A stretch of DNA of 64,000 nt from a candidate division TM6 bacterium GW2011_GWF2_28_16 (GTDB taxonomy: Bacteria; Patescibacteriota; Microgenomatia; UBA1400; PJMF01). Below, piece by piece: positions 37,175-57,545 of the stretch. The stretch covers positions 3,407 through 67,406 of the forward strand of contig CP011212.1 of assembly GCA_001029715.1 (NCBI GenBank). Direction: 5' to 3'. The notes under the pieces were generated by a model. It had not been told where the DNA came from. It searched no databases and was given only the letters and a program-made list of their open reading frames with translations. Position 1 is the first letter of the stretch; the number at the start of each line of letters is the position of its first letter. Position numbers and translations under genes: made by a program.

Positions 37175-38080
37175 GTGAATAGAATGAAATCAATCACTCT
37201 GGCTTTGTTGTTAATTAGTTCTTTTTTTTCTATTAGTGTAAAGAGTGCTTTTGCTACAAAACCAGAACCCATCATTGAGACAATAGAGGTTTATCAAACA
37301 AGAACCATCGTTGATAGCGAAACAAAAGAAGAAAGAGAAGCACAGTGTAATTTCTTTAATGGTTGTGTAGAGGCTGGAGAAAACGTGACAATTCACCTCT
37401 CTGGAATCGCCTACAACAATGGACTTCCTCTTCCAGAGGGTTCCAAAGTAAAAGTTCGTTTAAAATCAGAAGGGTGTAATGACTGGCCTGTGGGTGGCGG
37501 TTTCCAAGAAGCCACCCTCTACGACAATTACGTTGAAATCACAGCTCCAGGCTTAAATATTAAAGGCACCTGCTCTTACCAGTTAATTGTCAAGTTGGAA
37601 GCAGGAGAATCAGGACTAACTGGAGACGATAAACCAGAAACAAATAAAACCTATTTGGCAACTTCAACTATTGTTCAAGCTCAATGTTCATCAGAACAAT
37701 GTAATGAGGATCTTACTAGGTCTTCAAGATATGAACTATGTTCACAAATTGATGAAAGCGCTCCAGAATATCAGTCTTGTGCTGATTGTTTTAGTAATGA
37801 TGGGATTTGGACAGCTGTTGGCTGCATACCCAGCAACCCGAATGATGTAATTAAAGTAATTATTACTATTGGCTTGGCACTCGGAGGAGGAGTAGTTTTG
37901 GTAATGATTTTGGCTGGTTCTTTTATGCTTTCCGTCTCTCAAGGAGATCCAAATAAAACCAAAGAGGCCAAAGAAATTATCACCTCTGCCATAATCGGCT
38001 TATTATTTGTGATATTTTCCGTAACTATACTGCAGTTTATTGGTGTAGAAATTTTGCACATACCTGGATTTGGAGAATAA
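37175..38080 (+). CDS. Cys-rich secreted protein with a C-terminal two-helix membrane hairpin (VirB2/TrbC pilin-like topology)
   Basis: Signal peptide (ITLALLLISSFFSISVKSAFA); about 20 Cys in the ectodomain. The C-terminus has hydrophobic helix IGLALGGGVVLVMILAGSFMLSV, polar loop SQGDPNKTKEAKEI, then helix ITSAIIGLLFVIFSVTILQF. This module is shared with the next gene. Confidence 0.6.
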   Translation: MNRMKSITLALLLISSFFSISVKSAFATKPEPIIETIEVYQTRTIVDSETKEEREAQCNFFNGCVEAGENVTIHLSGIAYNNGLPLPEGSKVKVRLKSEGCNDWPVGGGFQEATLYDNYVEITAPGLNIKGTCSYQLIVKLEAGESGLTGDDKPETNKTYLATSTIVQAQCSSEQCNEDLTRSSRYELCSQIDESAPEYQSCADCFSNDGIWTAVGCIPSNPNDVIKVIITIGLALGGGVVLVMILAGSFMLSVSQGDPNKTKEAKEIITSAIIGLLFVIFSVTILQFIGVEILHIPGFGE

Positions 38081-38082
38081 AA

Positions 38083-39156
38083 ATGAAAAAAATTATTCAA
38101 ATTTCACTATTCCAACTTTTATTTGCTTTTCTTTTTACCGGGATTGGATTGGCATATAGGTGTGGTGAAAATTTTAAGGTTTATTATGGAGACGATGTCA
38201 GTACTATGTGCGAATGCGCAGCTGTAAACAACGAAGCTGCCTTCGTAAGCTTTACTAGTGGTGCCCCATCTACATACTGTTGTGGTTTTTATTATGGCGG
38301 TGAATGTCACATTGAAGAACAAAGTGATGAAGAAGAAACAAATACCTATGGGTGTGGAGAGGGCTTTATAGTTCTAAAAGATCAAGATATTTCTGGAATG
38401 TGCCAGTGTTCAATTGTAAATAATCAAGCAGAACTAATGAACTTTGATCAAGGAACGCAAACATACTGTTGCGGAAACGTTCAGGGAACACAATGCAGAA
38501 CTTACGAAGATCCCAATGACTATGCATGTGGAGAAACGAATAGTAGCGCCACCGTGCCAGATGGAGCAATTTGTAAATGTGATGGGGCAACTTGGGAATC
38601 ACGTAAAGACGGTTTCCTTAATTGGAGTAAGGGCATTTGTTGTGGTTGGGTTGTAGACAATGTATGTCTCAGCGAAGATCCTGCCGCAACGAATGCTTAT
38701 TGTGGGGATATTTATCCAGCTGGTGAAAAAAGTTGTATCTGTGGAGGTAGTGGTGGTCCAGTTCCCATGGAAGATGGCAATACTTGCTGCGGCTGGCTAG
38801 AAGAAGGAGTGTGCAAAAGCACCGATGTCGGCATTAGCGATCTTGAAGTCTCTGGTGATTTACTAGATAGTCTCAATCCTCTTTCTTCAGGAGATAATAA
38901 AGATGAACTTAGCACTCCAGGAGGAATTATTTCAAGAGCATTAAGCAATTTTATCTTCCCAATCGCAGGAATTATTCTTTTTGCAGTTTTACTACTCGGA
39001 GGATTCCAAATGCTTTCTGGAGCAACTAATTCAAAATCCTTGGAGGAAGGTAAGCAAAGAATTACTTCTGCAATCATTGGATTTATTATTCTCTTTGCAG
39101 CCTACTGGATTGCGCAATTGCTAGAATTAATCTTTGGTATTCGCATTCTTTCCTAG
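38083..39156 (+). CDS. Cys-rich secreted repeat protein, paralog of the upstream gene, with the same C-terminal two-helix hairpin module
   Basis: Internal ~60-aa repeats (CGEnF.V...D.S.MC.C..VNN.A....F..G....YCCG). The C-terminus (FPIAGIILFAVLLLGGFQMLSGATNSKSLEEGKQRITSAIIGFIILFAAYWIAQLL) aligns with the C-terminus of the 37175 gene, including the shared ITSAIIG core. Confidence 0.6.
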   Translation: MKKIIQISLFQLLFAFLFTGIGLAYRCGENFKVYYGDDVSTMCECAAVNNEAAFVSFTSGAPSTYCCGFYYGGECHIEEQSDEEETNTYGCGEGFIVLKDQDISGMCQCSIVNNQAELMNFDQGTQTYCCGNVQGTQCRTYEDPNDYACGETNSSATVPDGAICKCDGATWESRKDGFLNWSKGICCGWVVDNVCLSEDPAATNAYCGDIYPAGEKSCICGGSGGPVPMEDGNTCCGWLEEGVCKSTDVGISDLEVSGDLLDSLNPLSSGDNKDELSTPGGIISRALSNFIFPIAGIILFAVLLLGGFQMLSGATNSKSLEEGKQRITSAIIGFIILFAAYWIAQLLELIFGIRILS

Positions 39157-55337: not shown

Positions 55338-55346
55338 AATATAAAT

Positions 55347-57545
55347 ATGTTTAATCCTTTTGCTAAGAAAAAGACCATCGAATCGGCAGACCAGGGAAAA
55401 ATGAATGTCGATCAATACACGCAGGATAAATTAAGCGAATTTTCTCGTGGTCTCGTCACAATCCAAGACATTATTGCTCCTGAAGCAATTGAGGTTGATT
55501 TTACTTATCAAAAGATTAATTCCACTTACACTCGCACTTTATTTATTGCTGGTTACCCTCGTGCCGTTCCAGCCAACTGGCTTTCCCCTTTGATTAATTA
55601 TCCAAATCAAGCCAATATCTCAATGTTTGTTTTTCCGTCAGATACTGGTGATATTCTGGACGATCTTAAGAGAAAAATTACCGAAATGGAAGCTGAAATC
55701 ACTTCCGACATTAGATCTGGAAAAATCAGTAACATTAATACAGAAATTAAACTAAGTGATGCTAGAAGCATGCGTGAACAACTAGCTGCTGGTTCAGAAA
55801 GATTTTTTCAATTCGGGCTTTATGTAACGATAAAAGCAGATAACAAAGAAGAACTCGATAGAATTACCAAAAGCATCCAGGGAACTCTAGGCGCATTAAT
55901 GATTGTTTCGAAGAAATCCTCTTTGCAAATGGACGAGGGATTTAAAACTACCCTACCAATGGGCGTCGATCGCTTGCAGGTGACTAGAAACATGGATACC
56001 ACTTCCTTGGCGACTACCTTTCCATTCACTTCTTCAGAATTAACCATGGAAACCGGAATCGTTTATGGCATCAACGAACACAACGATTCCCTGGTGATTT
56101 TCGATCGTTTCAAAATGGAAAATGCCAACATGGTTGTTTTTGCTAAATCTGGTGCAGGTAAATCTTACACAGTGAAGCTAGAGATTCTCCGTCAATTAAT
56201 GTTTGATGCTGAAGTCATTGTTCTCGATCCAGAGCATGAATACGAAGAACTATGTAAAATGGTTGGTGGTGAATATATTAATTTTACCTTTGGCTCAGAT
56301 GCTAAAATTAATCCTTTCGATTTATCCAATGTTTATGAAGAAGGAGAAAACGAGCTGGGACAAAAAATCCTGTCGATTCATGGTCTTTTAAAAGTCATGC
56401 TCGGCGAAATGACTCCGCAGCAGGAAGCCTTGCTCGACCGCTCAATTATTGCTGCCTATAAAGCCAAAGGCATTACCCCAGATCCAGCCACTCAAAAAAA
56501 TACTCCTCCACTTATGGAAGATTTATATAAAGCCCTGATTGGTATGGAACGAGATGAAAGCGATGACCTAGCAGCTCGTTTGGAAAAATTTATCACTGGC
56601 TCCTTCCGCGGAATTTTTAGCCAGGCTTCAAACGTAGACATTAAGTCGCAATTCACTGTTTTTTCAGTCAAAGAAATGGAAGAATCTCTGCGTCCAATCG
56701 CCATGTACGTTATTCTTGACTTCATTTGGACTAGAGTTAAAAAGGATTTAAAGAGACGCATTTTAGTTATTGATGAGGCCTGGTATTTTATGATGCATCC
56801 AGATAGCGCGGCTTTTGTTTATTCCATGGTTAAAAGAGCCCGTAAATACTACCTTGGCATTACTACCATCACTCAAGATGTAGAAGATTTTTTACGCAAT
56901 GATTATGGCAAAGCTATTGTTTCCAACGCATCCATTCAGTTCTTAATGAAGCAATCTACTTCTTCAATTCCTATTTTGACTCAAACCTTTTATCTATCTG
57001 AAGGAGAAAGACAGCTTCTAGTTTCTTCCGATGTTGGCGAGGGTATTTTCTTCGCTGGCCAAAATCATGTTGCGCTCCGAGTAATTGCTTCTGCTGATGA
57101 ACACCAAGTAATCACCACTAATCCTGAAGAAATTTTAGAAGAAAGAGCAAAAAAAGAAGCAAAAAAAACAGTTACTGGAAACAGTGAACCTAGATCTGAA
57201 AGCTATGAGAGCTATCAAAAGATTAGAGAGCTAAAAAAGCAACGCCTTTTAAATAGCAGTGATTTTAAAAATGCGAATAAAACAGTTGGAAATCAAGAAA
57301 ATCAACCCAAATGGCAAAATCCGGACATAAAAATTGGCGAGGATGTGCTTAAAAATGCTAATCAAAATGCCGAAGCCGCTTTAAAAAATGATCAATTAAA
57401 ATTTGATCCCGACAAAGAATTAAGCGAAAGAGATGGGAGAAACGTCCCAAAAATTAAAACTATTTTTGGAGAAACAGAAGAAAAAGCATTGAAACCAGAT
57501 CAACATGGCACCTATAGTATTAACGACTATCAGCCCCCTAAGTAA
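55347..57545 (+). CDS. VirB4/TrbE/PrgJ-family conjugal-transfer-type ATPase (Gram-positive type)
   Basis: N-terminal region typical of monoderm VirB4 (IQDIIAPEAIEVDFTYQKINSTYTRTLFIAGYPRAVPANWLSPL); Walker A VVFAKSGAGKSYTV; Walker B ILVIDEAWYFM; C-terminal VirB4 conserved block (YYLGITTITQDVEDF). Confidence 0.85.
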   Translation: MFNPFAKKKTIESADQGKMNVDQYTQDKLSEFSRGLVTIQDIIAPEAIEVDFTYQKINSTYTRTLFIAGYPRAVPANWLSPLINYPNQANISMFVFPSDTGDILDDLKRKITEMEAEITSDIRSGKISNINTEIKLSDARSMREQLAAGSERFFQFGLYVTIKADNKEELDRITKSIQGTLGALMIVSKKSSLQMDEGFKTTLPMGVDRLQVTRNMDTTSLATTFPFTSSELTMETGIVYGINEHNDSLVIFDRFKMENANMVVFAKSGAGKSYTVKLEILRQLMFDAEVIVLDPEHEYEELCKMVGGEYINFTFGSDAKINPFDLSNVYEEGENELGQKILSIHGLLKVMLGEMTPQQEALLDRSIIAAYKAKGITPDPATQKNTPPLMEDLYKALIGMERDESDDLAARLEKFITGSFRGIFSQASNVDIKSQFTVFSVKEMEESLRPIAMYVILDFIWTRVKKDLKRRILVIDEAWYFMMHPDSAAFVYSMVKRARKYYLGITTITQDVEDFLRNDYGKAIVSNASIQFLMKQSTSSIPILTQTFYLSEGERQLLVSSDVGEGIFFAGQNHVALRVIASADEHQVITTNPEEILEERAKKEAKKTVTGNSEPRSESYESYQKIRELKKQRLLNSSDFKNANKTVGNQENQPKWQNPDIKIGEDVLKNANQNAEAALKNDQLKFDPDKELSERDGRNVPKIKTIFGETEEKALKPDQHGTYSINDYQPPK

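Follow-up and report, generated by a model that had tools for sequence, protein, structure and literature searches.

The 64-kb stretch of contig CP011212.1 analyzed here (the window, whose first letter is position 1) carries, between 37.1 and 57.6 kb and directly beside dnaA, a gene cluster that we consider likely to be a chromosomally fixed type IV secretion system (T4SS) of the Patescibacteria in a genome of the Microgenomates/Pacebacteria type, related to the conjugation machinery of monoderm bacteria known as mating-pair formation class MPF_FATA. The cluster comprises ten plus-strand genes with three minus-strand genes between them (Table 1). An original prediction, made from the DNA letters alone, had described a co-directional monoderm-type apparatus without a relaxase or integrase, of which several members lacked a recognizable domain; the three minus-strand genes break the plus-strand run, and searches of Pfam, NCBIfam and PDB indeed gave several members no domain. 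We used profile searches against Pfam, NCBIfam, PHROGs, PADLOC and PDB, with the Pfam gathering score and the NCBIfam cut-off as thresholds, and a hydrophobicity scan with a cut-off of 1.6 for transmembrane (TM) segments; negative statements on gene content cover the open reading frames (ORFs) of at least 90 aa in the window. Conservation was scanned in one genome per species, which yielded 592 relatives of the window VirB4, and the best 80 of these loci were inspected; where their titles are informative they are metagenome-assembled genomes from the candidate phyla radiation (CPR), the remaining labels being uninformative or evidently wrong (“uncultured Pseudomonadales/Gammaproteobacteria”, “Nevskiaceae”, “bacterium”). 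Gene order was compared in six further loci (L081-L086) fetched around homologs of the VirB6-like protein, which are 42-75% identical to it.

Table 1. Features of the T4SS cluster and its surroundings. Positions are those of the window, except in the last six rows, where they refer to the fetched locus that is named.
Feature	Position	Strand	Basis or remark
VirD4/T4CP-like ATPase	25838..27982	+	Pfam TrwB_AAD_bind 44.7 bits, TraG-D_C 24.8 bits
SpoIID-domain protein	35194..36948	-	Pfam SpoIID 56 bits; divergent from pilin genes
VirB2-like pilin A	37175..38080	+	PF18895 T4SS_pilin 28.4 bits, gathering score 26.6
VirB2-like pilin B	38083..39156	+	PF18895 39.2 bits, gathering score 26.6; TrbC E=0.011
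Secreted 943-aa two-module protein	39134..41965 (annotated start, probably right, 39185)	+	Module search
DHH-like 280-aa cytoplasmic protein	41931..42773	-	Pfam DHH E=2.8e-4, below gathering score
VirB6-like polytopic membrane protein	42789..44537 (annotated start 42861)	+	Fold, weak profile matches
Variable-slot protein 1, 831 aa	44586..47081	-	No match in Pfam, PHROG, PADLOC
Variable-slot protein 2, 350 aa, soluble	47146..48198	-	No match in Pfam, PHROG, PADLOC
1232-aa membrane protein, divergent M23 C terminus	48324..52022	+	Pfam M23 sub-threshold, BLASTP
Bitopic 327-aa membrane protein, YycH/YycI/PepSY-like ectodomain	52015..52998	+	Predicted structure
PrgI/VirB3-like protein	53049..53903	+	PF12666 29.7 bits, gathering score 27
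TrsD-like protein	53928..55337	+	NCBIfam TrsD/TraD E=6.6e-6; missed by the original prediction
VirB4 ATPase	55347..57545	+	Pfam, NCBIfam, Walker motifs
Probable oriC region	57546..59520	+	virB4-dnaA intergenic region, dnaA, dnaA-dnaN intergenic region
Slot in L081	11726-13885
Slot in L082	12080-14686
Slot in L083	11761-15219
Slot in L084	11596-15165
Slot in L085	11741-14512
Slot in L086	11692-13827

The VirB4-type ATPase at the downstream end of the cluster is identified solidly by Pfam (P-loop_TraG, 87 bits; AAA_10, 45 bits; CagE_TrbE_VirB, 20.3 bits), by NCBIfam (conju_CD1110, 394 bits with a cut-off of 325) and by both Walker motifs (Walker A, AKSGAGKS, read in the translation; Walker B, ILVIDE, from a motif scan), and its public annotation is “Type IV secretory pathway VirB4 component-like protein”. 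It scores 268 bits with Mbov_0397, a family of the Mycoplasma integrative and conjugative element (ICE), and 110 bits with TIGR00929, which has a cut-off of 643. Its match to the 752-position CD1110 profile covers positions 172-733. The gene directly upstream, both in the window and in 75 of the best 80 loci, encodes a TrsD-like protein of which residues 1-205 resemble a VirB4 N terminus, matching positions 101-278 of VirB4_plasma and 17-119 of CD1110 in NCBIfam; a low-complexity-looking tail rich in P, E, Q and T follows, as read from the translation, and its orthologs carry precomputed matches to PF26593 (TraC-like). As the TrsD-like protein aligns with the N-terminal stretch of VirB4 and the VirB4 ORF matches CD1110 only from position 172, the two ORFs are, by these alignments, jointly one predicted full-length VirB4, that is, a split VirB4.

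Upstream of this pair, in the window and in 72 of the 80 loci, lies the gene for the PrgI/VirB3-like protein that the original prediction had proposed, which scores above the Pfam gathering score. The 91-position PrgI profile covers the first 89 of its 284 residues, in which the hydrophobicity scan places an N-terminal TM hairpin, and a C-terminal extension of ~200 aa holds a CarboxypepD_reg-like beta-sandwich (PF13620, E=4e-4) and is conserved in relatives, whose proteins have 284-338 aa. The protein proposed as VirB6 is polytopic, and its identity as VirB6 stands at the level of fold, its best structural match in PDB being VirB6. Hidden Markov model signals for it are weak: NF045889, a TM-protein family of the Mycoplasma ICE, is matched by 16 of 38 homologs (best E=1e-6), MMCAP2_0566 by 9 of the 38, and TrbL_5 by one homolog.

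At the upstream end, the two Cys-rich proteins for which a VirB2/TrbC-like hairpin had been proposed both exceed the gathering score of the T4SS pilin family. In pilin A (301 aa) a signal peptide precedes an ectodomain of ~200 aa that contains 10 Cys, and the C terminus forms a two-helix hairpin (TM 228-246 and 268-286); the protein weakly matches NF045849, the pilin-like family of the Mycoplasma ICE (E=7e-5). Pilin B (357 aa) has a signal peptide, four Cys-rich repeats of ~50 aa with the pattern C-x-C ... CCG ... C (three found by regular expression, the fourth by eye; 24 Cys in total) and a two-helix C-terminal pilin hairpin; a relative in its 90% cluster is named “pilin” by NCBI. The L081 ortholog has three repeats, those of L082, L083 and L086 are shorter (193-210 aa), and the repeat pattern, searched for in the L082 and L083 orthologs, was found in neither. 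Across the relatives the pilin ectodomains range from ~100 to ~950 aa, and 14 of the 15 pilin-domain proteins from the seven genomes match the Mycoplasma ICE pilin-like family.

The secreted 943-aa protein encoded next had been proposed as a lytic transglycosylase of the SLT type. No SLT (GH23) signal was obtained from Pfam and NCBIfam with the single sequence, from Pfam with 30 homologs or from whole-protein and domain profiles run against PDB, and hhalign gave a probability of 0.1%, a weak negative given an SLT alignment of three sequences (Slt70, a P. aeruginosa Slt segment and one self-made consensus-style query); the resemblance is confined to motifs (HFTEG and YNGxGN), and we abandoned the assignment. 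As a single sequence the protein has no match in Pfam, NCBIfam, PHROG or PDB, and profiles gave none. A search of 1.84 billion representative proteins revealed that it consists of two modules that also occur separately. In L083, module A (residues ~30-680) is part of a 1076-aa protein (5683-8913 of that locus) whose C terminus is a T4SS pilin hairpin with homology to pilin A, a Rosetta-stone fusion that ties the 943-aa protein to the pilins. Module B (residues ~690-880) is Cys-rich, has an invariant H..E and a YNGxGNxNC motif, and co-occurs with T4SS_pilin in 5 of 51 proteins and with M23 and CHAP in one each. Judged from these module partners, the protein clearly belongs with this T4SS, and we propose it as a candidate pilus-associated or cell-wall-acting ectoprotein.

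The claim of an M23 wall hydrolase holds in part. The C terminus of the 1232-aa membrane protein is M23-like, aligning to the window’s own bona fide M23 protein (BLASTP, E=2e-8) and retaining HLHYE (HxH) and FAHF (the catalytic-His context), but its Pfam M23 score (PF01551, 22.7 bits) falls below the gathering score of 28.7, and SDAYD replaces the canonical HxxxD, with a His 10 residues upstream. The protein lacks a signal peptide and comprises a cytoplasmic part of ~730 aa, two TM segments (734-752 and 826-844) and the extracellular M23 region (~1095-1200); its N-terminal 732 aa have no match in PDB. Precomputed PF01551 matches in its orthologs range from confident (L083) to faint, and NCBI names a near-identical protein of the same 90% cluster “M23 family metallopeptidase”. 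In the L082 homolog the M23 block is gone and a different, Cys-containing C-terminal segment stands in its place, which by eye looks like a papain-type peptidase and, if so, would fit a swappable wall-hydrolase module. We regard the 1232-aa protein as a VirB1-type candidate for breaching the wall.

The start of the next gene overlaps the stop of the hydrolase gene. Its product had been likened in size to VirB8/TcpC, and it is bitopic as described, but its high-confidence model (predicted local distance difference test, pLDDT, 89) matches YycH/YycI/YpeB-PepSY folds and no fold of the VirB8 type (the NTF2 fold of TcpC, PrgL and TraM), and we rejected that identity; the literature on 5coz / EUBREC_2869 yielded nothing useful. 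L082, which lacks the M23 block, also has a 142-aa gene at the bitopic position. By analogy with YpeB-SleB and with PepSY propeptides, the fold suggests that the bitopic protein may regulate or scaffold the M23 hydrolase. A further candidate partner in cell-wall remodeling is the SpoIID-domain protein, putatively linked to the T4SS by synteny: its gene lies directly upstream of the pilin genes in all six relatives at 38-49% identity, with one 155-aa gene intervening in L086. Within 31244-36948, SBP (minus strand), VanW/PG_binding_4 (plus strand) and SpoIID (minus strand) genes stand immediately upstream of the pilins, an order kept in five of the six relatives with SpoIID alone in the sixth, and a T4SS-associated wall-remodeling set may thus extend to the left of the reported start of the cluster.

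The TraG/VirD4-like ATPase that the original prediction had placed about 10 kb away lies upstream of the pilin genes, its end 9.2 kb from the first of them. It resembles a type IV coupling protein (T4CP), matching NCBIfam conju_CD1115 (E=5e-15) with a Walker A of GKTGTGKS, and is soluble, having no hydrophobic segment above 1.25 and no TM helix. In six of the 80 related loci its homolog adjoins PrgI divergently, an arrangement that speaks for a functional connection with the T4SS. In the window the VirD4-like gene (25838-29398 region) converges on radA, with a 6-bp overlap at the radA end.

Domain searches detected no relaxase (MOB), integrase or recombinase in the window, as had been claimed, nor does its 64 kb hold a tRNA; the GC content is unremarkable, with no compositional island. 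At its other end the cluster abuts dnaA (57656-59212; Pfam Bac_DnaA, 222 bits), which starts 110 bp after virB4 and is followed by dnaN from 59521, then rnpA and yidC. Since intergenic DnaA-box-like sites flank dnaA on either side (57573, 57585, 59271 and 59463) and the cumulative GC skew reaches its minimum at ~58.5-59 kb, the chromosomal position next to oriC that had been proposed is plausible.

The arrangement recurs in relatives. Of the best 80 among the 592 loci, 72-75 retain an intact PrgI-TrsD-VirB4 and 62 have dnaA/dnaN no more than 10 kb away. All six fetched loci repeat the order of the window: SpoIID (minus strand), pilin, pilin, a protein of ~940 aa, the DHH-like protein (minus strand), VirB6, one or more large minus-strand genes, a hydrolase protein of ~1100-1360 aa, the bitopic protein, PrgI, TrsD and VirB4, the exceptions being the 142-aa gene of L082 and, in both L082 and L086, one or two additional small genes. 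Because gene order is the same in these six relatives and PrgI-TrsD-VirB4 is kept near dnaA/dnaN, we infer that the cluster is inherited as a chromosomal unit. Homology or fold identifies a platform of VirB6 and PrgI, a VirB4 motor in two pieces, a pair of VirB2-like pilins and a candidate M23-type hydrolase anchored in the membrane; T4SS families are thus represented well beyond VirB4, by PrgI, TrsD and both pilins and by VirB6 at the level of fold. Homology, fold and synteny together support the core of the original prediction, a monoderm-type, MPF_FATA-like T4SS fixed beside oriC. With no relaxase or integrase in the window and the same dnaA-side place across distant relatives, the genes argue that this is not the conjugation apparatus of a mobile element.

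The system itself is already known: the same T4SS, its missing relaxase and its dnaA-side position were published for Patescibacteria, Microgenomatia among them, in 2023 and 2025. VirB4, encoded by 2,417 of the 3,035 Patescibacteria genomes surveyed, constitutes a clade nested within MPF_FATA, with TrsD, PrgI and arrays of VirB2-like pilins as typical companions (the arrays being especially common in Microgenomatia), T4CP homologs mostly far from virB4, the locus near dnaA and dnaN, and relaxases in 103 of the 3,035 genomes and rarely near virB4 (Quinonero-Coronel 2025, Microb Genom, PMC12102498). Tn-seq in Saccharibacteria showed the counterpart system, including its pilins, to be essential to growth as an epibiont (Wang 2023, Cell, PMC10633639). 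Like this clade, including SEML1_0006-0019 of Southlakia epibionticum, the window has PrgI, a TrsD-like protein and VirB4 as its core, a polytopic protein resembling VirB6, VirB2-like pilins (PF18895) of divergent sequence encoded in tandem, candidate peptidoglycan hydrolases in the cluster, no relaxase, a T4CP-like gene elsewhere and a chromosomal site near dnaA/dnaN. It differs from S. epibionticum in its pilins (301 and 357 aa with Cys-rich ectodomains, against ~100-190 aa), its bitopic protein (YycH/PepSY-like, against the NTF2-like SEML1_0012) and its candidate hydrolase (an M23-like domain that ends the 1232-aa membrane protein, against a lysozyme/glucosaminidase encoded downstream of virB4). 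According to the 2025 survey, VirB6 is scarce in Microgenomatia and VirB3 mostly unlinked to VirB4 (PMC12102498), whereas the window has VirB6, by fold, and a VirB3/PrgI linked to VirB4. The window offers a clean, complete Microgenomates example of the Patescibacteria T4SS, and its minor new details are the fold-level VirB6 and the PrgI-VirB4 linkage, which fill two reported gaps, a YycH/PepSY-like protein where VirB8 would be expected, a triad shared with the Mycoplasma ICE, and a variable slot of unrelated large proteins.

Among conjugation systems, the cluster resembles MPF_FATA (pCF10 Prg, pIP501 Tra, pGO1 Trs, the C. difficile element CTn with CD1110 and CD1115, and the Mycoplasma ICE with Mbov_0395-0397): its VirB4 reaches the CD1110 cut-off, and it has PrgI and TrsD families, a membrane-anchored multi-domain candidate wall hydrolase like PrgK or TraG, and no outer-membrane core (VirB7, VirB9, VirB10). 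Unlike MPF_FATA, it lies off any mobile element in a window without relaxase, oriT or integrase, its VirB4 is split into a TrsD-like protein and an ATPase, its T4CP-like ATPase has no TM anchor, no VirB8-like fold (PrgL, TraM, TcpC) was found, and its VirB2-like pilins are absent from classical Gram-positive systems. It shares with the MPF_T systems (R388 Trw, Agrobacterium VirB) a VirB2-type pilin hairpin and a VirB3 and VirB4 module, but VirB5, VirB7, VirB8, VirB9, VirB10 and VirB11 were not detected, the envelope is monoderm, and sequence similarity is marginal (the TrbC and TIGR00929 matches given above). The pilin, TM-protein and VirB4 families of the Mycoplasma ICE (Mbov_0395, Mbov_0396 and Mbov_0397, with consecutive tag numbers) all have weak homologs in the window, which hints that a FATA sublineage may have had the pilin ancestrally rather than borrowed it from diderm systems.

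We propose that VirB4 and TrsD would dock on PrgI and VirB6 and, as a motor, drive the assembly of the pilins and their extrusion through a gap that the M23 protein would cut in the wall. Help in this cutting may come from the SpoIID protein and from module B of the 943-aa protein, and the YycH/PepSY-like bitopic protein would control or scaffold the M23 hydrolase rather than act as VirB8. The resulting pilus-like surface structure might contact a host cell and move macromolecules between epibiont and host, with substrates possibly recruited or fed by the soluble VirD4-like ATPase 9 kb upstream. The suggestion of the original prediction that the apparatus serves host interaction rather than conjugation is probably correct, given its fixed flanks, the lack of relaxase and integrase in the window and the essential Saccharibacteria counterpart. 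In a recent preprint, tubular structures at the parasite-host interface were described as possibly T4SS pili (2026; bioRxiv 10.64898/2026.06.21.733656). The Patescibacteria T4SS, essential in the one genetically tractable species, is plausibly among the few machines behind host exploitation by ultrasmall epibionts, a significance that rests with the published work.

Several points weigh against this assignment. The function would be carried over by analogy from Saccharibacteria, whose cluster differs from the window’s in its NTF2-like protein, its small pilins and its lysozyme downstream of virB4. A VirB8-type scaffold was looked for in the cluster and not found, the T4CP-like ATPase, encoded 27 kb from virB4, lacks a membrane anchor, and confidence in the VirB6 model is only moderate (pLDDT 60.8). 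The M23 domain, being sub-threshold and non-canonical at HxxxD, may be inactive, and the large pilin ectodomains leave a classical VirB2 filament uncertain.

The strongest competing explanation, though an unlikely one, is a DNA-uptake machine comparable to Helicobacter ComB or archaeal Ced, importing host or environmental DNA to supply nucleotides or genes to an organism unable to make nucleotides. Import needs no relaxase, and VirB4 and the VirD4-like ATPase weakly match the archaeal DNA-import ATPases CedB and CedD, but at 48 and 23-34 bits these matches lie far below cut-offs of 600-700. The genomic setting is also suggestive, since the VirD4-like gene and radA are convergent, the window also contains pseudopilin genes of the type IV pilus kind, and T4SS loci of the ABY1 class are found together with comF, recG and radA (PMC12102498); against this, the cluster contains no ComEC or ComEA gene. 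Moreover, loss of comEC in S. epibionticum abolishes competence and leaves viability unaffected, while the T4SS is essential (2025 review, PMC12857230), which argues that the essential role of the T4SS is not transformation.

A transfer module of an integrated or decayed ICE that conjugates by means of a relaxase encoded elsewhere is still less probable. The closest families outside CPR are conjugative (CD1110, CD1115, Mbov_0395/0396/0397 and TrsD of pGO1-type plasmids) and a T4CP-like ATPase is present, yet the 64 kb carry no relaxase, integrase, tRNA target or compositional island, and on the absence of all these marks we rejected a mobile-element origin for the window. The flanks are likewise constant, with SBP-VanW-SpoIID upstream and dnaA-dnaN downstream in genomes whose proteins are 40-75% identical, which argues for vertical inheritance, and the published rarity of Patescibacteria relaxases, above all near virB4 (103 of 3,035 genomes; PMC12102498), speaks against a partner encoded elsewhere. 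Finally, VirB4 and its immediate partners might be the only T4SS-related genes, the upstream genes being a cell-envelope cluster adjacent by chance, as the three interrupting minus-strand genes and the members without a recognizable domain could suggest. We consider this reading effectively refuted: the pilins match the T4SS pilin family above threshold, the best PDB match of the polytopic protein is VirB6, the pilin/TM/VirB4 triad matches Mbov_0395, Mbov_0396 and Mbov_0397, and the whole order is kept in six relatives.

Of the minus-strand genes within this T4SS cluster, the DHH-like gene stands between the 943-aa gene and virB6 on the same strand in all seven genomes (40-70% identity); its product appears degenerate, the DxD, DHH and GGGH catalytic motifs all being absent from the alignment. 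The other two fill a slot (44586-48198 in the window) that virB6 and the hydrolase gene enclose and that is read from the opposite strand; every relative has a large protein (711-1152 aa) there, and no family match was obtained for the window or L081-L086. These proteins form at least four mutually undetectable families, shared by the window and L084, by L081 and L086, and by L083 and L085, with L082 alone in the fourth; blastp found no similarity between families, and local hhalign probabilities stayed below 9% with alignments of one or two sequences each, so that deep homology is possible. The distribution of the families is discordant with the flanking genes, as the VirB6 of the window is 73-75% identical to those of L081, L084 and L085 alike. 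Slot protein 2 is found only alongside the 831-aa type, its sole homolog among the fetched loci being in L084 (73% identity). A check for signal peptides and TM segments, covering the two slot proteins of the window, found no signal peptide in slot protein 1 and one weak hydrophobic segment (383-401, scoring 1.78 with the cut-off at 1.6).

PADLOC and PHROGs gave no matches beyond M23-type ones and HerA-like ones of the VirD4-like ATPase, and we rejected a defense-system or phage origin for the genes lacking an assignment. The slot genes could encode cargo or effectors that evolve fast or are exchanged, and we tentatively entertain, as a doubtful but real possibility, that the slot is a polymorphic cassette of translocated T4SS substrates. 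If so, this cargo and the variable pilin ectodomains would make the system a host-targeting machine with a variable tip and cargo, beyond a conserved conduit, and the slot is a place in which to search for T4SS substrates.

Elsewhere in the window, two giant ORFs occupy 125-16695, the first (2294 aa) without a Pfam match and the second (3235 aa) with four Laminin_G_3 stretches and Gly_rich_2, Toxin_R_bind_N-like and Ig_Rha78A_N domains; both probably encode giant adhesins on the surface of the epibiont. Next to them on the minus strand come three pseudopilin genes of the type IV pilus kind (16721-18613). The pseudopilin-like ORF at 17771-18613 (minus strand) and a TPR-protein ORF at 18324-20534 (plus strand) overlap, as listed, by ~290 bp on opposite strands, and one of the two probably starts further downstream than listed.

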